A stretch of 64,000 nt of DNA. Origin: an uncultured Chloroflexia bacterium (GTDB taxonomy: Bacteria; Chloroflexota; Limnocylindria; Limnocylindrales; CSP1-4). Both the position numbers and the translations under genes were made by a program. The stretch's first letter is position 1. Every line of letters starts with the position of its first letter. Location of the stretch: NCBI GenBank assembly GCA_963750125.1, contig CAVVPT010000026.1, positions 88,993 to 152,992 of the forward strand. The letters run 5' to 3'. Positions 4,471 through 34,810 of this stretch are shown in pieces. The notes under the pieces are model-generated. The model was not told the DNA's origin and ran no database searches. It was given only the letters and a program-made list of their open reading frames with translations.

Positions 4471-4542
4471 TCCGACTCGACGCCGTCCGCCGTTCCCCGG
4501 TCGGCGATTGATTTCCTGCCCACAGTCGGAGGTTCGGGAGCG

Positions 4543-5136
4543 ATGGTCAGCACGGGACAGGCACCGGCATACGGCGCGGCGGCTCCGGACACGTGGCGCA
4601 CGCGGGACATCGTCGTCACCGCGGTGATCGGCGTGGCGTTCGGCGTCGTCTTCTGGTTCTGGAACACGATCTGGGCGCCCCTCGACGTCGTATTCGCGCT
4701 GGCACCGTGGGCGAAGGACCTGCTCTATGCCGTCTGGCTCATCCCTGCGGTCCTCGCGCCGCTGATCGTGCGCAAGCGTGGCGCGGCGATCTTCGCGGAG
4801 ATGACCGCAGCCGGCGTGTCGGCGCTGCTGGGCAGCCAATGGGGGCCCGACGTCCTCCTCTCGGGGTTCGTGCAGGGGGCAGCTGCGGAGCTCGTGTTCG
4901 CGATGACGTTCTATCGCTCGTACGCGTTCCCGACGCTGGTCGCCGCGGCCGTGGCAAGCGCGGCCGCCGCGTGGATCCACGACTGGGCGCTGTACTACGC
5001 AGCGGTCGACCCCCTCGTCCAGTTCGTCCGTGGGGCGATGATGGCGATCTCGGCCGCGATCATCGTGGCCGGCGGGTCGGTCCTGATCGAGCGCTCGCTG
5101 CGCCAGTCCGGCGTGCTCCAGGGCTTCCCGGATTGA
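4543..5136 (+). CDS. ykoE: ECF transporter substrate-specific (S) component, YkoE-type (HMP/thiamine precursor)
   Basis: 197-aa polytopic membrane protein with a ggagg SD upstream. It is preceded by the TPP riboswitch and followed by a duplicated ECF ATPase and a T component. Confidence 0.8.
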   Translation: MVSTGQAPAYGAAAPDTWRTRDIVVTAVIGVAFGVVFWFWNTIWAPLDVVFALAPWAKDLLYAVWLIPAVLAPLIVRKRGAAIFAEMTAAGVSALLGSQWGPDVLLSGFVQGAAAELVFAMTFYRSYAFPTLVAAAVASAAAAWIHDWALYYAAVDPLVQFVRGAMMAISAAIIVAGGSVLIERSLRQSGVLQGFPD

Positions 5137-23896: not shown

Positions 23897-24937
23897 ATGG
23901 CCCGCGAGCTCCCGATGTTCGAACCTCCCTCGAGCGGACACCACGGTTCCGTCACGCCCGAGACGATTGCGATGGGTGGGCTCGCCCCAACCGCACCGGC
24001 GGCGCTCCGCCGGCACCCTGACTGGATCAAGTCGCGCCTGCCGTCCGGCGACAACTACCACGACCTGAAGGCGTTACTGCGGGGCCTCAACCTGAATACG
24101 GTCTGCGAGGAGGCGCACTGCCCGAACATCGGGGAGTGCTGGGACCAGCGCACCGCGACGATCATGATCCTCGGCGACACCTGCACCCGCGCCTGTGGGT
24201 TCTGTGCAGTCAAGACCGGGCGGCCCACCTGGTTCGACGACGATGAACCGCGACGGGTCGCCGAGGCGGTTGCCGCGATGCGGCTCGAGCATGTGGTGGT
24301 CACCTCGGTCGCCCGCGACGACCTGGCAGACGGCGGCGCGTCGATCTTCGCCGAGACGATCTTCCAGATGCGCGAGCGCAGTCCGGGGATGGGGGTAGAG
24401 GTGCTCATCCCCGACTTCGACGGCTCCGACGACCGGTTGCAGATCGTCATGGAGGCCCGGCCCGACATCCTCAACCACAACCTTGAGACGGTGAAGCGAC
24501 TCCAGAAACCCGTGCGCAAGCGCGCTCGATGGGACCGCTCCCTGTATGTGCTCCGGCGGGCGAAGGAGATGGCGGTCGACATTGGCTACTCCGTCCACAC
24601 GAAGAGCTCGCTGATGGTCGGGCTCGGCGAGACGCGCGACGAGCTGGCCGAGGCGTTTGAAGCGTTGCGCGCGGTGGACGTCGACATACTCACGGTGGGC
24701 CAGTACCTGCGGCCCTCGGACAAGCACCTGCCGCTCGAGCGCTACTACCACCCCGACGAGTTCGCCGAGATCAAAGTCGAAGCTCTTGCCCTGGGGTTCA
24801 AGCACGTCGAGTCGGCGCCGCTCGTGCGCTCGAGCTACCACGCGCGCGACCAGGTACCGGGCGCGGAGCTCAAGGCCATGCGCCGCCGCCAGGCGACCCT
24901 CGACCCGGAGGGCCGCGTCGTCCCGCTGGCGGGGTAG
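23897..24937 (+). CDS. lipA: Lipoyl synthase (radical SAM)
   Basis: CEEAHCPNIGEC and CTRACGFC cluster motifs, and the C-terminal SSYHA. Confidence 0.92.
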   Translation: MARELPMFEPPSSGHHGSVTPETIAMGGLAPTAPAALRRHPDWIKSRLPSGDNYHDLKALLRGLNLNTVCEEAHCPNIGECWDQRTATIMILGDTCTRACGFCAVKTGRPTWFDDDEPRRVAEAVAAMRLEHVVVTSVARDDLADGGASIFAETIFQMRERSPGMGVEVLIPDFDGSDDRLQIVMEARPDILNHNLETVKRLQKPVRKRARWDRSLYVLRRAKEMAVDIGYSVHTKSSLMVGLGETRDELAEAFEALRAVDVDILTVGQYLRPSDKHLPLERYYHPDEFAEIKVEALALGFKHVESAPLVRSSYHARDQVPGAELKAMRRRQATLDPEGRVVPLAG

Positions 24938-25186: not shown

Positions 25187-25835
25187 ATGACACGCGCGCT
25201 CGTCGTCTCATTGATCGCGCTGCTCGCCGTTGCGGGCTGCTCCCTGTTCGCCGGGTCCTTGCCCGCGCCCGCCGAATCACCCGAGCCAGCCGTTCCGATC
25301 GCCTGCTTCGGACTCGAAGAGCCCGATTGCACCAGCGGCCCTTGAGGCGGCCGCGACCCAGGTGAAGCCCGGTGACGTCGTCGTCTACGCCGAGGTGGGG
25401 CCGTTCGGTTGCGCCGTCGGAGACGGCTGCGCCAACACGCTGGCCGCCAGGCCACAGGGCGTGGCCGTGCTCGAACTCGCGAACGGCGAGCCGCTCAACA
25501 TGGGGATGAACGTCGCTCCCGACGGCACGATCAGCGTCGTTCCCGATTCGTTCTCATACGTCTCGGTCCCGCCTTCCTCGGTCGCGGGTCGGCTCGCAAT
25601 CGGACCGGTCCCATACACCCTCGGCCACTGCGGCCTGTCCAACGGCATCGACATCGATGGCAGCTGGTGGGACCCGGTAGGGTTCGTCGACATCGACGGC
25701 AACGACGTCGTCAATGCGTCGGAAGGCATCTTCACCGCGACCGACCAGAACCACGCGACGTTCTCGACCGCCGGCGGGCTCAACATGAATCTCGTTCGCC
25801 GCGTCGGCGAGAAGCACCTGCCGATGTGCATGTAG
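25187..25835 (+). pseudogene. Hypothetical lipoprotein, one frame change near 25325
   Basis: ATG at 25187 gives MTRALVVSLIALLAVAGCS (lipobox LAVAGC) and then hits a stop at 25343. The body continues in the frame of ORF 25230..25835 (AALEAAATQVKPGDVVVYAEVGPFGCAVGDGC...). Confidence 0.6.
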
Positions 25836-27034: not shown

Positions 27035-28097
27035 ATGACGCGCAGAACCGCTGTCGCGGGAATCTCGTTGCTCGCTGTCGTGCTCATCGGCGCCGGCTGT
27101 TCGCAGGCGGCGCTTTCGCCCGAGGCGGCTGCAGCTCGCGGTTTCACCTCCCGCGGTTTCACCTCCCGCGGTTTCACCGGACGTATCCGAGGCGCCATCG
27201 CCCGGCACATCGCCGGACGAGGCGTCCGAGGGACCTTCCAGTGGCGTAGCGATCACGTTCGACAAGGTGAAACCGAAGCGATGGGGCGCAAAGCCGTTCG
27301 AGGTCAAGGCGGTGGCGAGCACCGGTGCCAAGATCAAGTACTCGGCCAAGGGCGCCTGCACGGTTACGCCGCGCGCTGGTCGCGTAGAGATCGAGAAGGT
27401 GGGCAACTGTGTCATCACGGCGAAAACGACGAGCGGCGAGCCAGCGTCCGAGTCAATGACCATCAAGGTCCGGCCCGCAAAACCGAAGATTGCGTTCGCG
27501 GATGATTCTGTCCGCTGGAAGCCCGGCAATTCGTACACCTTGGAGGCCAAGGTGTCGCCGAACGTCCCGCTCAGTTACGCGGTCGTAAAGGCTGGCTCTG
27601 ACGAGAATTGCAAGATCCGCAAAGGAGCGCTGACGCTCATCGAGGACACGCCCCAGCTCCCGCTCGTGTGCAAGGTCAAGGTCGCGGCCGCGGCGACGTC
27701 ACCGAACTACCAGACACCAGAGCCCGTGGTAGCGAAGATCACGGTCCGCTATCCCGCCTGGGATGTCGAAGCGATCAGCCCCGACGTGGTGTTCTGGTCT
27801 AAAACGAACGGCGAGGTTCGCGTGAAGGTCCGCGAGCATTCCGGCACCGCCCTCGGGATGACGGCGAATGGAGCTGAGCTACGAGACCAGGACCTCTGCG
27901 CCGCCGTCGGATCCTCGCCCAGCCCGGCCCCCTTGGGAACGAAGAGCTATGTCGTTGTCCTGCACGTCAGTCAGCCGAGCGCGGAAAACGGGACGGCGGA
28001 CGGGTACGAGTGCAAGATGGTTGCCGTTGCGGGACCGGAGAATTACGCAGGCCCGAGCGGGTCGACTGACCCATTCACGGTGACGGTCCGCCCGTAA
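27035..28097 (+). pseudogene. Lys-rich Ig-like-repeat lipoprotein, lower GC, one frame change near 27125
   Basis: The signal and lipobox (AGISLLAVVLIGAGCS) are in one frame. The linker and body (AVSPPAVSPPAVSPVDVSEAPSPG..ITFDKVKPKRWGAKPFEVKAVASTGAKIKYSAKGACTVT..) are in the frame of ORF 27267..28097. Hand count of 27421-27660 gives 145/240 G+C (60%), against 87/120 (72%) for 26401-26520. Confidence 0.65.
27137..27178 (+). repeat. 15-nt tandem repeat cgcggtttcacctcc x2.8 (encodes AVSPP units)
   Basis: Perfect copies at 27137-27151 and 27152-27166, plus a partial copy at 27167-27178. Confidence 0.9.
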
Positions 28098-28115: not shown

Positions 28116-31100
28116 GTGACCTCGATCTTCATCAGCTACTCCTCGACCGACGTCGAGGCAGGCGCGCGGCTGCGCGATCTCCTCGCTGCGCGCGGCTACG
28201 CAGCCGTCTTCCGCGACAAAGACCCGGAGCACGGGATCGCCGCCGGAACGCGCTGGGCGGCGGAGCTCTTCTCAAACCTTGAGCGCGCCGACGTGATCGT
28301 ATTCCTCGCCAGCGAGGCATCGCTCAGATCACCCTGGTGTCACACGGAGCTTGCCGTCGGCGTCGCTCGTGGCAAGCACATCGTCCAGGTCTCGCAGCAG
28401 AAGACCGATGTCCACCGCGTGCTGGCCGACCGTCAGGCGATGGCGCCGGAACCGGACATCGACGGCCTCGTCGAGGCGCTGATCGCCAACCTGTCGGCAG
28501 TCGGCTTCGGCCCAGGCGACGAGTTCAGCTGGGACGTCGATCGCTCGCCATATCCCGGCCTCGGCCGTCTCGATCAGGATCATGCTGCGGTTCTGTTCGG
28601 GCGCGATGCCGAGGTCGGCGCATGCCTCCAGCGATTGGCCATTCCACGACCGCTGCCACTCCTCGTGTCCGGACCATCGGGGAGCGGCAAGTCGTCGATG
28701 GTGCGGGCCGGCGTCCTGCCGAGACTCGCCCGCCAGGAGGGAACGCGGGTCCTGCGGGTCGTCGAGCCCGGTGACAGCCCACTGCAGCGCGTCGCGCTGG
28801 CGTTCGCGACGGACCAGGGCGAGGCTGACGCAGCGGCGTTGATCGCCGATCCCAAGGGGTTTTCCTTCGCCGTCGACAAGGCCGTCGCAGGCGGCGCGAG
28901 CCGCGTCGTGTTGTTCCTCGATCAGGCCGAGGACCTGATCGCACGAGCCGACCGGGCGCAGGTCACCGACCTGATGACGCGCCTTCAAGCGGTGGATCCG
29001 GATCGGCTGGTGGTGATCGCCGCCGTTCGGAGTATGTCCCTCGACGCCTGGCTCCAGGAGCCGTCTCTGTCGTGGCTTGGGCAGGCCGATCCGGTCTGGG
29101 TCCGCCCGCTTGGGCGCGAGGCGTTGCGCGAGGTGGTCGTCGGACCGGCGCATGTCGCCGGGATCCGGTTCGAGCCCGAGACGCTGGTCGATCGGATCGT
29201 CGAGGACACCGCGCAGGGGAACGCTTTACCGCTGCTGGCGGCACTTCTCGAGGAGCTGGCCGAGGGGCACTCGAGGCTGACCCCGGCCGTGATCACCGCG
29301 AAGCGCTATGAGGAAATCGGGCCGGTCGGGCGGGTGATCGAGCGGAGGGCACTGGAAGCGACGAACGACATTCGTGCTCGGCGCGGCCTGGGCGAGTCAA
29401 TCGTGATCAACGCGTTCCTCCGCTTGGTCGAAGTCGATGACGATGGCACGGTGACCGGCGCCGACGTCGTCCTCGACGACGTGCCGGCCGAGGTCCGCGA
29501 CATCTTCGAGGACTTGGAACGCTTCCGGCTGGTCACCCGCGACCAGCGGATCGTCGCAGCGTCGGCGGCACCGGCAGCCGGGGAAGCGGGCGGGCGATCG
29601 GCGGAGGTGGCTCGGGCGGTGCACGAGGAGGTCTTCCGCGCGTGGCCCGCCGTCGCGGCGGCCATCAAGACCCGCCGAACGGACCTCGAGACGCGTACGT
29701 GGCTTCGCCACGACGCACAGTCGTGGGACAACGCAGGTCGTAGGGAAACCGCGTTGACCGGTGGTCGTTTGGCCGTCGCGCGCGCGTGGCACGAGCGGAA
29801 CCCGGCGGAGGTCACTCCAATCGTCGACGCTTACATCCGTTCATCACGCCGGCAGGTCCGTCGCCGCCAGGCGCTCACGTTTGCGGTACCGATGCTCGCC
29901 GTCGTCGCGCTGGCGGTCGGCGTGCTCGCGTTCCAGGCCTTCAGCGAAGCGCAGCGCGCCAACGCGGCACGTGATGAAGCGGACGCCCTTCGGATTGCCG
30001 GGGATGCGAGGGCGAGCCTGGACTCGCGCCCGGATCTCGCGCTTCTGCTCGCGATGGAGGCAGCGGTCCGGAGCGACGCGCCACAGGTGCAGGGGATGCC
30101 GCTGGCAGCCCTGACCCACGGCCCGGGTCCGCGGCGGTTCCAGGACGTCGGTGAACCCATCGACGCGGCGGCAATCGATCGCGCAGGGTCACATGCGGTC
30201 ATGCGCGTCTCGGACCGGACGCTGCTGTGGAACATAAAGGATGGCGCTGCCACGGCGACGCTGCCGACGTCCAGCGATGTCGTCGCGATCTCTGGTGACG
30301 GAACAAGGGTTGGACTCGGGACACCCGACGGCATCGCGCTTTATCCATGGGACTCATCCGAGGTCACGGTCCGGTGCCCAATAACCAACGGGGCGGTCAC
30401 GGAGCTTGCGCTGTCAGATGACGGGACCCTGGTGGCCGTCGTCACCGAGGATCCGGCAACCTCGGAATCCGCGGTCACGTTGCTCGACGCCTCGAGTTGC
30501 AAGCCCACAGCCGAGCTGTCTGATGTGTCTGGTGAGGTGCGTGCCGTCGCGTTTGACCCGAGCGCCGAATACCTGGCCCTGGGAGCGGAGGAGAACGGCG
30601 CCGGAGTGTGGGACGTCAAGTCCGGCGCACACCTGGGGGAGATGGGGAACGGGACCGAGACGGTGCGCACTCTCGCTTTCGGCGATGACGACGACCTTGC
30701 TTGGGCTACGACCGATGGGGAAGTGCTGCTGTCTGACATCTTCGATCCCGAATCGAACACCCAGCAATTCCGGATCGACGGTGGCGACATCGTCGCGCTC
30801 GCATACTCGGCCCCGGACGACTCGTTCCTCATCGGCACCGGCACGGGCGAGGTTCGGCGCGTCAACTCCTCGAGCGATCCGCAGGTCGGCCCGCCGCTCC
30901 GGGCGCTGCCGCCACTCGAGTACGCGGGCGTATCAGTCGAGCCCATGGCCATGGCGGCAGACGGCGGTCGAGGCGTCTCGATCGATCCCGCCGGCCGCGT
31001 CGTCGTCTGGGACCTGGACGGGCGGCCGCCCCTCGGCCCCGACCTGTCCCGCGGTCGGACGGTTGAGCTGGTTGCGTCCGACCTAGATAGATCCGTGATC

Positions 31101-31985
31101 GCATCCGACGGCGATGAGATCTGGCGCGTCGACAGTGCCACAGGGGAGACGGGTCAGCTGGCCCAGCGGAGTGATGTGAACGTCCTAACAGCGGGCGAGG
31201 ACGGGTGGGCGGCCGGCACCGCCGGTGGAGAGATCCTGACTGGTGGCGCCACTCCCGAGAGCGTACGGACAATCGAGACTTTCCCCGGACGGAAGGTGGT
31301 TGGGTTGACCTCCGTACCTGGCGGAGGATGGGCCGCTACCTTGAATGGCGGCGGTGGATCGGTGGCCGTCATCCCACCGGAGGGCCGGACGCGGGAGGCG
31401 GCCATGACCGCGACGCCGGCGTCGCTCGCCGTCAGCGACTCGCACGTCTACGTCGGCGACATGAACGGCACGATCCATGTCTTCGGGCTCGACGATCTCC
31501 AGCCCGCGGTGCAGGTCCAGGCGCATAACTCCGACATCGCGTCGATGGCGCTGAGCCCGGACGGCTCCCTCCTCGCGACCGGCAGCGACGACCGGACGAT
31601 CGGCCTGTGGGACGTCGCAGACGATGGCGCGCTTACACCACACAGCCGTCTGCGCGGGCACGAAGAGCGGGTCCGTTCGCTCACCTTCAGCCCAGACGGG
31701 CACTGGCTTGCGTCGGCGGCCGACGAACCGGCAGTGCGCTTCTGGGATCTCGCGACGGAGCATGCCGTCGGAGACCGGATTTCGGTCGGTAGCCGCCCGG
31801 TGGTTGCGTTCAGCCGCACAGACGACCGGGAGCTGCTGGTCGCCGACGGCGGACTCGCGGCGTGGGACATGCGTGCCGAGCAGTGGCCCACGATCGCATG
31901 CCGCATCGTTGGCACCAGGCGCTTGGATGACACCGAACGCAAGCAGTACATGGGTGGCGAAACCGAGCGGGCCGCCTGCCCCTGA
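28116..31985 (+). CDS. TIR domain - STAND P-loop NTPase - single TM helix - WD40/beta-propeller protein (1289 aa)
   Basis: TIR: IFISYSSTD..ADVIVFLASEASLRSPWCHTELAVG. STAND: PYPGLGRLDQDHAAVLFGRDAEV, Walker A GPSGSGKSS, Walker B VVLFLDQAED. Hydrophobic helix ALTFAVPMLAVVALAVGVLAF after RRQVRRRQ. Canonical WD40 units appear only near the end (SPDGSLLATGSDDRTIGLWDV, GHEERVRSLTFSPDGHWLASAADEPAVRFWDL). Family-typical C-terminus QWPTIACRIVG..CP. Confidence 0.88.
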   Translation: MTSIFISYSSTDVEAGARLRDLLAARGYAAVFRDKDPEHGIAAGTRWAAELFSNLERADVIVFLASEASLRSPWCHTELAVGVARGKHIVQVSQQKTDVHRVLADRQAMAPEPDIDGLVEALIANLSAVGFGPGDEFSWDVDRSPYPGLGRLDQDHAAVLFGRDAEVGACLQRLAIPRPLPLLVSGPSGSGKSSMVRAGVLPRLARQEGTRVLRVVEPGDSPLQRVALAFATDQGEADAAALIADPKGFSFAVDKAVAGGASRVVLFLDQAEDLIARADRAQVTDLMTRLQAVDPDRLVVIAAVRSMSLDAWLQEPSLSWLGQADPVWVRPLGREALREVVVGPAHVAGIRFEPETLVDRIVEDTAQGNALPLLAALLEELAEGHSRLTPAVITAKRYEEIGPVGRVIERRALEATNDIRARRGLGESIVINAFLRLVEVDDDGTVTGADVVLDDVPAEVRDIFEDLERFRLVTRDQRIVAASAAPAAGEAGGRSAEVARAVHEEVFRAWPAVAAAIKTRRTDLETRTWLRHDAQSWDNAGRRETALTGGRLAVARAWHERNPAEVTPIVDAYIRSSRRQVRRRQALTFAVPMLAVVALAVGVLAFQAFSEAQRANAARDEADALRIAGDARASLDSRPDLALLLAMEAAVRSDAPQVQGMPLAALTHGPGPRRFQDVGEPIDAAAIDRAGSHAVMRVSDRTLLWNIKDGAATATLPTSSDVVAISGDGTRVGLGTPDGIALYPWDSSEVTVRCPITNGAVTELALSDDGTLVAVVTEDPATSESAVTLLDASSCKPTAELSDVSGEVRAVAFDPSAEYLALGAEENGAGVWDVKSGAHLGEMGNGTETVRTLAFGDDDDLAWATTDGEVLLSDIFDPESNTQQFRIDGGDIVALAYSAPDDSFLIGTGTGEVRRVNSSSDPQVGPPLRALPPLEYAGVSVEPMAMAADGGRGVSIDPAGRVVVWDLDGRPPLGPDLSRGRTVELVASDLDRSVIASDGDEIWRVDSATGETGQLAQRSDVNVLTAGEDGWAAGTAGGEILTGGATPESVRTIETFPGRKVVGLTSVPGGGWAATLNGGGGSVAVIPPEGRTREAAMTATPASLAVSDSHVYVGDMNGTIHVFGLDDLQPAVQVQAHNSDIASMALSPDGSLLATGSDDRTIGLWDVADDGALTPHSRLRGHEERVRSLTFSPDGHWLASAADEPAVRFWDLATEHAVGDRISVGSRPVVAFSRTDDRELLVADGGLAAWDMRAEQWPTIACRIVGTRRLDDTERKQYMGGETERAACP

Positions 31986-31998
31986 GCGCCGCGCCCCG

Positions 31999-32718
31999 TC
32001 AGTCCGAAGGGCCGCCCACCCGGTAGGTGCAGCAGCGATCGCCGCTGACGATGTGCGTCTCGCGCTCGACGTCGGGCCCGAGGACCTCGCGGAACAGCTC
32101 GAGCTCGGCGCGACAGGCGGCCTCGGCCCCAGTTGCGACGTGGTGGATCGCGCAGTTGTGCTCGATGATGCGGATCACGCCGTCCGGTCCGAGCACGGCC
32201 TCGGCGAGATAGCCCTGCTCGTCCTGGATCACCGCGAGCTCACGGGCCCGGTCGACCACCGACGCACCCGCAGGCAGCCGTTCAGCGATCTGCTCCCGGA
32301 CGCGTTCCGTGACCATCCGCCGGCGCGCTTCGAACACCTCCTCGACAAGCCCCTCGCCGCCGACCGACCGGATCGCTCCAAGCAGGCCGGTGGCCAGCCC
32401 GTCGTAGGCGGCGGGGAACAGGTCCTGGGCGTTCTCCGTAACGTCGTACACATGGCGCGGCCGGCCGACGCCGTGACGGACCGTCTCGCGGCGAACGAGG
32501 TTCGCGGCTTCGAGAGCGCGCAACTGCTGGAGCACGCCAGTCCGGCTCGCGCCCATGGAAGTGGCGAGGTGGTCGGGCGAGCTGGGACCATCGCGGCGGA
32601 GGCGAACCAGTAGTTCGCGGCGAAGCGTTGAGGCGCCCTGAACGGTGGCCGCACCGGCGCTCGAGGCGAGTCCCGCTGGCGTGACGGCTGGGGAAGCCGA
32701 GTTCTGCAGCTCGGGCAT
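31999..32718 (-). CDS. ArsR/COG2345-type (SufR-like) winged-helix regulator with Cys-containing C-terminal domain
   Basis: HTH: LATSMGASRTGVLQQLRALEAANLV. GRPRHVYDVT wing. C-terminal EHNCAIHHV..AACRAE..SGDRCCTYRV. Confidence 0.7.
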   Translation of the reverse strand: MPELQNSASPAVTPAGLASSAGAATVQGASTLRRELLVRLRRDGPSSPDHLATSMGASRTGVLQQLRALEAANLVRRETVRHGVGRPRHVYDVTENAQDLFPAAYDGLATGLLGAIRSVGGEGLVEEVFEARRRMVTERVREQIAERLPAGASVVDRARELAVIQDEQGYLAEAVLGPDGVIRIIEHNCAIHHVATGAEAACRAELELFREVLGPDVERETHIVSGDRCCTYRVGGPSD

Positions 32719-34015: not shown

Positions 34016-34810
34016 CTAGACCTGGACGAAGCGGACGATCAGGCGGTACTGGCTCCTCGCGCCGACGCACGTCTGGAGCGTGAGGCTCGGGCGCGACTGG
34101 GCCGCGAAGGCGAAGCCTCCCTTGGTCGGCGTCGTGACCTTCCACCAGATGAGCTTGTACGTGCGGACCTTGCCCTTGCTGTCGGCGTACGAGACCTTCA
34201 TGCCCTTGCGGAGACGGCCGTTGACGTACGCGTCGTGGAGCGGCTTGAAGGCGGCGTGCGCGTGGGCGAACAGGTATACGTTGTTGCTGCCGGCGCAGCC
34301 CCAGCGATAGACGACGTTGCCGGGGTACGCCTTGCTCGAGCACGGGAAGAAGTAGGCGGAGCGGCTGATGCCGAGCGCCGGGAACCACATCCGGTTCCTG
34401 CCGCCGTAGCTCCCGGAGCTTGAGCCGCCACCGGACCCACTCGACCCGCCCGACGGCGTGGCCTTCGATACGCTCTCGACCTTGTTGATCGACTCGGTCT
34501 TGGGGCGAACCGGAACGTGGATCGGCTCGGCGGGCTCGGCGATGGGGACGAGCCACGGGTTGAGCGCGTCCGCCATCGCTGCCTCGCCGCCGCTGCGGAC
34601 GCCCGGCCTCGTCGCCTGGGCGGAGAACGGGGTCGATCCCTGCGCTGCAGCATCCGTCGCATCGGACCGCGCGAAGACACTCGACGCCACCGCGATCGAT
34701 TCGGCGGCGAGGATCAGGGCGAGGACGACGGGGAGGAGAACCCGGCGGTAGGGCACGCGGGGTCGGTTCATGCGCCGACCATCGCGAACCCGGTGCGCGG
34801 GGACCGTCAC
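34016..34810 (-). CDS. Sortase-fold transpeptidase (class F-like) with N-terminal membrane anchor
   Basis: His (VYLFAHAH), TLQTC catalytic Cys motif, and Arg (YRLIVRF) in sortase order and spacing. Anchor RRVLLPVVLALILAA. The alternative start ATG at 34771 is more likely. Confidence 0.6.
   Translation of the reverse strand: MTVPAHRVRDGRRMNRPRVPYRRVLLPVVLALILAAESIAVASSVFARSDATDAAAQGSTPFSAQATRPGVRSGGEAAMADALNPWLVPIAEPAEPIHVPVRPKTESINKVESVSKATPSGGSSGSGGGSSSGSYGGRNRMWFPALGISRSAYFFPCSSKAYPGNVVYRWGCAGSNNVYLFAHAHAAFKPLHDAYVNGRLRKGMKVSYADSKGKVRTYKLIWWKVTTPTKGGFAFAAQSRPSLTLQTCVGARSQYRLIVRFVQV

Follow-up and report, generated by a model that had tools for sequence, protein, structure and literature searches.

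Mycobacterium tuberculosis PknD is a receptor Ser/Thr kinase with an extracytoplasmic propeller. In planctomycetes, Ser/Thr kinases that combine a cytoplasmic kinase, a single transmembrane (TM) helix and periplasmic WD40 or TPR arrays have been described, by TM prediction only (PMC11032199). Among the STAND ATPases, nSTAND1 was named within the STAND-FGS conflict-system context (Kaur, Iyer, Burroughs, Aravind 2021, eLife; PMC8195603), and a 2026 Nature survey of 360,000 prokaryotic STANDs, whose phylogeny includes Apaf-1-like WD40 sensors and a clade of nSTANDs, was framed as intracellular sensing (PMC13581612). A study of diversity-generating retroelements (DGRs) predicted some STAND-lectin targets to be periplasmic. 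A 2025 preprint reports operons of TIR and SLATT genes as type VII Thoeris, with cyclic ADP-ribose (cADPR) as the product of the TIR and SLATT as the effector protein; the TIRs of Avs-type proteins were left out of that study (10.64898/2025.12.03.692087). This work concerns a stretch of 64,000 nucleotides (nt) from an uncultured Chloroflexia bacterium (contig CAVVPT010000026.1, positions 88,993 to 152,992; hereafter the window), in which a gene for a TIR-nSTAND1-WD40 protein of 1289 amino acids (aa) follows directly on a gene for a lipoprotein. Based on the analyses below, we propose, with slightly better than even confidence, that the two genes form a module, the product of which would be an NLR-like receptor that crosses the membrane once and signals outside-in, with a TIR output.

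The earlier note on this DNA, made from the sequence alone, had read a single 1289-aa open reading frame (ORF) at 28116-31985, composed of a TIR domain with a catalytic-type Glu, a STAND NTPase with Walker A and B motifs, a hydrophobic helix (~586-609) after RRQVRRRQ, and a propeller in which only the last blades were canonical WD40, and all of these elements were recovered here. The ORF coordinates are exact, its codon-position GC content (0.73/0.52/0.81) fits a genuine gene at ~70% genome GC, and the reading frame is complete, with every family-invariant residue kept in the window copy. The profile searches that the note had proposed for TIR, STAND and WD40 gave Pfam matches to all three, namely TIR_2 at residues 4-95 (E 1.1e-13; score 52.2 bits, cutoff 28), nSTAND1 PF20703 at residues 145-544 over model positions 1-378 of 379 (E 2.1e-68), and WD40-type matches confined to residues ~1100-1257, the last blades of the second of two propellers. 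NCBIfam yielded nothing above its cut-offs for the receptor, with ThcB4 scoring 36.6 bits where 220 would be required.

In the TIR domain, E78 aligns with the catalytic-Glu position of the TIR motif; W74 and E78 do not change in 55/55 TIR-bearing homologues, and both are also invariant in a TIR-only alignment, E78 in 15/15 sequences. Because the profile of full-length homologues was dominated by the WD40 repeats, a separate TIR-only profile was used, and it matched the solved TIRs of TLR1/2/15, Cat1, TIR-STING, SpbK, RUN1/L6 and SARM1 (E 1e-7 to 1e-3), the best matches being the TIR domains of Toll-like receptors (TLRs). The S-x-W-C-x-x-E motif superimposes on the WC..EL of solved TIRs, including those of Cat1, a CRISPR-associated NADase, the TLRs and TIR-STING. 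A single-sequence phmmer search of residues 1-586 against the PDB gave zero matches; the AlphaFold2 (AF2) model of the N-terminal half has a beta-alpha TIR fold at its N-terminus. The conserved motif is thus consistent with the TIR of the window protein being a candidate NAD-cleaving enzyme.

The nSTAND1 domain carries a Walker A motif, G186-PSGSGKSS-194, which includes K192 (nt 28671-28697), and a Walker B motif, VVLFLDQAED, at residues 264-273 (D269-Q270-x-E272). Across 55 homologues the entire Walker A, Q270, E272, R305, H503 and E504 are unvarying, and D269 is nearly so. In the AF2 model of the N-half (residues 1-640; pLDDT 86.8), the TIR fold is joined to an AAA+-type NTPase core and a winged-helix region, the latter made of helices and a beta-hairpin wing at 473-501 that is followed by the invariant H503-E504. 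The top Foldseek matches of this half are the plant TIR-NLR RPP1 (7dfv; 3.7e-8), AAA+ proteins of the Orc1/Cdc6 type that carry a winged helix, and Avs5 (9jap), a SIR2-STAND protein; the Orc1/Cdc6 and RPP1 matches cover both the nucleotide-binding and the winged-helix domains.

For the C-terminal half, modelling with AlphaFold had been suggested in the earlier note, and it returned a confident tandem 7+7-bladed propeller. The model of residues 575-1289, built with 51 homologues (pLDDT 93.7, pTM 0.88), has ~57 strands, equal to 14 blades, together with three short helices and a two-helix tail, so that the canonical Pfam matches cover only the end of a much larger propeller array. Foldseek placed this half with tandem seven-bladed propellers, namely 2ymu (E 7e-30), Aip1 (1nr0), UTP/PWP2 and Apaf-1 (3sfz).

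The two halves are joined by the segment ALTFAVPMLAVVALAVGVLAF (residues 586-606, nt 29871-29933), with a Kyte-Doolittle hydropathy of 2.48 over 19 aa and RRQVRRRQ just before it, and both AF2 models show here an exposed, unbroken helix (576-634 in the C-half model and 568-634 in the N-half model). Relatives were sampled thrice, as 120 proteins from a word-indexed search, 80 reference-genome loci, and an exhaustive HMMER search reduced to 137 non-redundant representatives. A central hydrophobic segment was found in ~95/120 of the homologues, 61/72 genome loci and 61/92 non-redundant representatives, and a central TM helix is therefore the majority state among the sampled nSTAND1 proteins. In the relatives it lies 40-60 residues past nSTAND1, with hydropathy values of 2.0-2.9 and a mean uncharged length of 21.3 aa; its position and hydrophobicity are conserved and its sequence is not. 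Relatives that have no TM helix align cleanly on either side of it; therefore, the basic stretch, the TM helix and the stalk constitute a discrete module of ~50 residues. It is an insertion that follows the last nSTAND1 helices and comes before the DPxLALLLA helix, which in turn leads to the propeller.

The flanks of this segment are asymmetric, with a mean of 5.65 Lys and Arg in the 15 residues before it versus 2.67 after it, and the N-terminal flank is the richer in 92/93 homologues. This excess predicts an N-in/C-out orientation, which is also the only one that would give the TIR and the ATPase access to NAD+ and ATP. The TIR domain and the ATPase are therefore probably cytoplasmic and the ~680-aa propeller probably extracytoplasmic, as judged from the sequences and models. 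One TM helix, a positive-inside flank and a C-terminal propeller, the features looked for in a single-pass receptor, are all present; a sensor able to touch the nucleotide-binding oligomerisation domain (NOD) within one compartment, as in Apaf-1/NLRC4-type autoinhibition, was not found, since the predicted TM helix stands between the halves. The positive-inside topology that the earlier note had put forward thus gains backing from three independent lines, namely the conservation pattern of the helix, the flank bias and the TM-linked cysteines described below. Its view that such a membrane split is unusual holds against the characterised cytosolic Avs and bNACHT proteins only, and does not hold within the nSTAND1 family, where the TM helix predominates. 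A Tat twin-arginine export signal was considered for the basic N-flank; the motif is inconsistent across homologues and no claim is made for it.

The cysteines of the C-terminal half follow the presence of the TM helix. Among 20 orthologues (39-100% identity), which have only 5-8 cysteines each, the four located after the helix, C754, C795, C1262 and C1288, are invariant (20/20). In the AF2 model, C754 and C795 sit on equivalent short strands of the adjacent blades 3 and 4, and C1262 and C1288 on two elements of the tail, where they bracket the conserved motif AC..x..R.LT..E...Y....C. Across 51 diverse TM-bearing homologues, C1262 and C1288 are the sole invariant columns after the TM helix, and TM-less relatives keep the homologous R.LT..ER tail with both tail cysteines gone. 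In the first sample the tail pair occurs in 76/82 proteins with a central TM helix versus 5/27 without (Fisher p 3.5e-13). With a motif-anchored definition, limited to proteins having the homologous tail motif, the pooled data give 67/87 versus 1/19 (Fisher p 5e-9), and a crude definition applied to the non-redundant representatives gives 38/61 versus 6/31 (Fisher p 1e-4). A naive test of TM helix against tail cysteines over the 80 genome loci gave no significance (p 0.31), being weakened by the many loci that end in other domains, e.g., FGE-sulfatase. When the NTPase domains were placed in a neighbour-joining tree, the proteins lacking the TM helix fell into six separate clades, five of them without the cysteine pair, and the number of cysteines after the TM helix is mostly two or four, as compared with 0-10 in the equivalent regions of TM-less relatives.

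The simplest reading of these patterns and models is that C754-C795 and C1262-C1288 are predicted disulfide staples of an exported domain, and their modelled positions on strands and tail elements are compatible with pairing. A Cys4 zinc site formed by the four invariant cysteines was rejected as a general explanation, because the tail pair alone is conserved family-wide. Three TM-bearing proteins without the flanking tail cysteines (P0092, L018 and L075) have, as an alternative cysteine arrangement, a CxxC (WSCQVCGP, WECSVCGP and RACEVCGP, respectively) just before the R.LT..ER tail. The two halves also differ in their identity to the window protein, which is 87 vs 67% for the N-half and C-half of P0002, 66 vs 46% for P0005 and 60 vs 36% for P0010; the ectodomain thus diverges approximately twice as fast as the cytoplasmic half, the pattern that diversifying pressure on a sensor would be expected to leave.

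The second component of the proposed module is the lipoprotein, which has a signal peptide with the lipobox MTRRTAVAGISLLAVVLIGAGC, a Ser/Pro-rich linker and a domain of ~280 aa with six conserved cysteines. It matched no Pfam family even at E<=10, and only 14 homologues were found among 5.8 billion proteins. In 6/6 loci of the clade (the window, L001, L002, L003, L084 and L085), the receptor gene is preceded at 6-20 nt by a gene of this lipoprotein family; for the five loci other than the window, the lipoprotein hidden Markov model (HMM) gave E values of 1e-38 to 1e-157. An unannotated gene of similar size lies upstream of the receptor gene at the P0014 locus. The wider neighbourhoods all differ, being a shikimate operon, GGDEF/ParA genes, comEC/holA or a conflict island; since the pair is kept while its surroundings change, it behaves as a mobile two-gene cassette. 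The suggestion in the earlier note that receptor and neighbouring lipoprotein may be parts of one module is hence supported, and the examination of neighbourhood conservation that accompanied it showed the lipoprotein-receptor adjacency to be kept and the other neighbours not. The HMM detected no partner beside 80 distant loci, so the partnership is specific to the clade of the window protein rather than a property of the whole family. At locus L086 (Streptomyces coacervatus, 4499-4999), a different Cys-rich protein of 166 aa with a signal-peptide-like N-terminus is encoded 1 nt upstream of a distant TIR-nSTAND1-TM-WD40 gene, and this hints that exported partners recur beyond the clade.

Some relatives adjoin TIR_2, LSDAT, CHAT, SLATT or transposase genes. 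A fusion of LSDAT(SLOG) and SLATT_1 is encoded directly 3' of the receptor gene in L003 (11887-13701) and L085 (8870-10687), either 8 nt away from it or overlapping it by 4 nt; a SLATT_1 gene starts 2 nt after the receptor gene in L086 (8998-9891), and LSDAT genes lie near it in L084 and at the P0014 locus. By analogy with Thoeris, the SLATT-adjacent relatives support a signal-producing or NAD-consuming TIR in the family, and the LSDAT-SLATT adjacency suggests that a pairing of TIR product with pore effector may have been built onto a STAND receptor. The surroundings of the cassette in L084 (Intrasporangium sp. GCA_040414665.1, 6015-10832) are a small conflict-system island, in which a further TIR_2 protein of 464 aa, an LSDAT_prok protein standing alone and a large CHAT protease are encoded.

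Residues 145-640 retrieve 11,892 clusters at 50% identity (E<=1e-10), of which the clade of the window protein makes up only about a dozen. The family is concentrated in Actinomycetota, Chloroflexota, Cyanobacteria and Myxococcota. Elsewhere the nSTAND1-TM-WD40 chassis bears Ser/Thr kinase, SARP, adenylate cyclase or trypsin N-termini, and kinase-nSTAND1-TM-WD40 relatives are present in Sorangium. A subgroup of nSTAND1-WD40 proteins of ~1180 aa in Streptomyces and relatives (P0072, P0078, P0081, P0083-86, P0096, P0100, P0109, P0110, P0114, P0116-118) begins with two hydrophobic helices where others have an enzymatic effector, with no central TM helix and no tail cysteines. Presumably these proteins are anchored in the membrane and have their sensor in the cytoplasm; the two-TM head may itself be their effector.

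We therefore outline how such a receptor might work. First, the propeller, either alone or with the lipoprotein as a co-receptor or a guarded bait, would bind an extracytoplasmic ligand, for which a phage particle, another foreign protein or an envelope-derived cue are candidates. Because the membrane blocks contact between sensor and NOD, activation is proposed to proceed through ligand-driven clustering, in which the gathered ectodomains and stalks would promote ATP-dependent oligomerisation of nSTAND1 beneath the membrane. The oligomer would then juxtapose the TIR domains for NAD+ cleavage. In relatives, the TIR product would probably be read by the LSDAT(SLOG)-SLATT membrane effector encoded next door; in the window, which has no such reader, NAD+ depletion might arrest growth or kill the cell, or the signal might go to an effector encoded at an unlinked site. 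A role of the receptor in defence or death is plausible. On a broader scale, and only tentatively, since we incline somewhat against it, a large branch of bacterial NLR-like STANDs could be cell-surface receptors, with the window protein and its lipoprotein sensing a threat outside the membrane and an ATP-gated switch converting it to TIR signals or NAD+ collapse. Such threats could include competitor proteins, cells that are not kin, and phage particles that have not yet delivered their genome, and SLATT pores would act as the downstream executioners in some lineages.

A number of observations weigh against the outside-in receptor with a TIR output. The support for it is computational throughout. 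Canonical STAND control needs direct sensor-NOD contact, which the topology bars, and the activation step is therefore speculative. Non-enzymatic TLR TIRs also carry the motif Glu, so this residue is necessary and insufficient for assigning NADase activity. One TM-less protein, L067, keeps the tail cysteine pair and is a real exception. The varied heads on the chassis may mark a general receptor rather than a specifically immune one. In the window itself, the neighbours are housekeeping genes (sucB for the E2 acyltransferase, an epimerase, lipA, adenosine deaminase and acyl-CoA dehydrogenase), and phmmer found no LSDAT or SLATT homologue within the 64 kb. PADLOC, the defence check to which the earlier note had pointed, did not bear out a known system, with no Avs or NLR model matched and only weak ThsB-like TIR matches (best E 5.5e-6). 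Finally, the signal peptide (frame 27035) and the mature part (frame 27267) of the window lipoprotein are out of frame.

Among the alternatives, the strongest, which we nevertheless consider unlikely, keeps the protein and its topology and makes its role non-antiviral, namely general transmembrane signalling of envelope state, cell-cell or kin recognition, or a developmental programme of cell death, the bacterium then being filamentous or multicellular; the TIR would be just one among several interchangeable outputs. The kinase, SARP, adenylate cyclase and trypsin heads on the same chassis speak for it, as do the housekeeping flanks, which do not resemble a defence island, the lack of a PADLOC system call, the description of the planctomycete kinase-TM-periplasmic WD40 proteins as signal transduction (PMC11032199), and the concentration of the family in the four phyla named above. 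It has to be set against the TIR, caspase-like and trypsin heads and the adjacent LSDAT/SLATT, TIR and CHAT genes, which are hallmarks of conflict or death, against the different genomic site of the cassette in each genome, which is like that of mobile defence genes, and against the fast evolution of the sensor half.

It is improbable, in our judgement, that the module is decaying or inactive in this genome, although the frameshift of the lipoprotein gene points that way. Compared with the intact and otherwise ~100% identical P0121 (349 aa, from another assembly), the window gene has ~13 extra nt within 27122-27137, and the mature frame has no alternative start codon before 27267. The indel adjoins a perfect 15-nt tandem repeat, CGCGGTTTCACCTCC, present 2.8 times at 27137-27178 and encoding the AVSPP repeats of the linker. 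The frameshift is either pseudogenisation or an error of the metagenome assembly, and the receptor ORF is intact with all its invariant residues; moreover, decay in one genome would be compatible with the outside-in receptor, which addresses the family. A non-spanning role for the hydrophobic segment, as a helix that is buried or serves oligomerisation, or as an anchor at the membrane periphery, within a protein wholly cytoplasmic like Avs or Apaf-1, is in keeping with TM-less relatives that must function in the cytoplasm with the same NTPase and propeller and with the cytosolic location of all characterised bacterial STAND sensors (PMC13581612), but we regard it as very improbable, given an uncharged stretch of ~21 aa with hydropathy up to 2.9 and an unconserved sequence unlike that of a packing helix, the positive-inside bias, the exposure of the helix in both AF2 models, the co-variation of the cysteine staple with it, and a conserved partner that is an exported lipoprotein.

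Table 1. Features of the receptor locus, with coordinates in nt of the window.
Feature	Coordinates	Strand	Details
lipA (lipoyl synthase)	23897-24937		
Partner lipoprotein gene	27035..28097	+	ends 18 nt before receptor start codon
Receptor ORF	28116..31985	+	GTG start, 1289 aa
TIR domain	28116..28499	+	residues 1 to ~128; FISYSS beta-A; S72-x-W74-C75-x-x-E78 motif
nSTAND1 STAND-type NTPase	28548..29747	+	residues 145-544; PYPGL...FGRD lead-in
Continuous helix with basic segment, predicted TM and stalk	29817..30017	+	residues 568-634; RSSRRQVRRRQ; 28-residue stalk, predicted extracytoplasmic
First seven-bladed beta-propeller	30126..30866	+	residues ~671-917; C754, C795; AF2, Foldseek
Second seven-bladed beta-propeller	30948..31868	+	residues ~945-1251; Pfam, AF2, Foldseek
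C-terminal two-helix tail	31881..31985	+	W..ACR..G.R.L...E...Y......AACP; C1262, C1288, then stop codon

Several other features of the window lie close to the cassette (Table 1). The only named close homologues of the window LipA (80-82% identity) come from MAGs of Chloroflexota and Candidatus Limnocylindrales, and the top matches (85-92%) are metagenome proteins of soil type; the host is thus probably not an actinobacterium. Between lipA and the adenosine deaminase gene, a 201-aa ORF (25230-25835) has good coding statistics, with a GC content of 0.84 at third codon positions, no Pfam match and a Pro/Ser-rich N-terminal part. On the other side, a convergent gene for a weak helix-turn-helix (HTH)/PadR-like regulator (31999-32718, minus strand) ends 13 nt past the receptor stop codon, and a sortase-domain protein is encoded ~2 kb beyond it (34016-34810, minus strand); neither gene was associated with the receptor in the other loci. 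A scan for sigma-70 promoters and terminators found none above chance.

With respect to novelty, the TIR-nSTAND1-WD40 domain architecture is already catalogued, such proteins bearing TIR, nSTAND1 and WD40 labels in JGI, NCBI and UniProt, and hence is not new. The literature searched, of incomplete coverage, contained no account of a membrane-split TIR-nSTAND1-WD40 topology, of a TM-linked cysteine staple or of a lipoprotein partner. What would be new here is an NLR-like TIR switch predicted to be wired as a surface receptor, with sequence and model evidence for an outside sensor and a dedicated lipoprotein partner. If the propeller is indeed extracytoplasmic, an NLR-type switch driven across the membrane without sensor-NOD contact would be a mechanistic novelty for STANDs, and bacteria may have a surveillance of the cell surface that feeds into death or signalling by TIR domains, a functional analogue of the TLRs on an NLR engine. 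The lipoprotein pairing suggests that outside-in cues may be what triggers NLR-type signalling of alarm or death in bacteria, and the conserved partner offers a handle for ligand or guard hypotheses. In addition, the TM-bearing and TM-less paralogues, which have the same type of NTPase and sensor and differ in the cysteine staple, provide natural paired experiments.

Compared with the systems described so far, the window protein shares with the nSTAND1 conflict NTPases (PF20703) a variable N-terminal effector, the NTPase and a C-terminal repeat or lectin sensor; a TM helix, a cysteine-stapled tail and a lipoprotein partner are not discussed in the available part of that account, where the sensors were proposed to bind invader molecules, with the compartment unspecified (PMC8195603). 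The tripartite effector-STAND-sensor layout is also that of Avs/AVAST and bNACHT proteins, TIR is a known Avs effector, and Avs5 (9jap) is among the matches of the N-half; however, Avs and bNACHT proteins are soluble and cytosolic and sense phage proteins made in the cell (PMC13581612), whereas the window protein has a predicted TM helix between NOD and sensor. As in Apaf-1 (3sfz), the sensor is a tandem beta-propeller, although Apaf-1 is fully cytosolic, with a CARD and with 7+8 blades contacting the NOD, in place of the TIR and the 7+7 blades found here. The TIR-plus-NOD half is structurally nearest to the RPP1 resistosome protomer (7dfv) and in this respect resembles the plant TIR-NLRs RPP1 and ROQ1, which differ in having leucine-rich-repeat (LRR) sensors and in being entirely cytosolic. 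The predicted order of cytoplasmic enzyme, single TM helix and extracytoplasmic propeller resembles that of PknD and the planctomycete STK-TM-WD40 proteins, but the output would be a TIR with a STAND switch and there is no Ser/Thr kinase domain; the cysteine staple and the lipoprotein partner are unreported for the planctomycete kinases (PMC11032199). In L003, L085 and L086 a SLATT or LSDAT-SLATT gene follows the TIR gene as in type VII Thoeris (10.64898/2025.12.03.692087), yet Thoeris TIR proteins are small and cytosolic, whereas here the TIR heads a 1289-aa STAND protein, predicted to be a TM receptor, for which membership of the ThsB family was not found. Lastly, a single-pass topology that places a repeat ectodomain on the outer side of the membrane and the TIR on the inner side, as predicted here, is that of the animal TLRs, which are activated by ligand-induced oligomerisation, and the resemblance is one of analogy and not of whole-protein homology, as the window protein has its TIR at the N-terminus, in reversed polarity, a WD40 rather than an LRR sensor, and a STAND ATPase between the TIR and the membrane.

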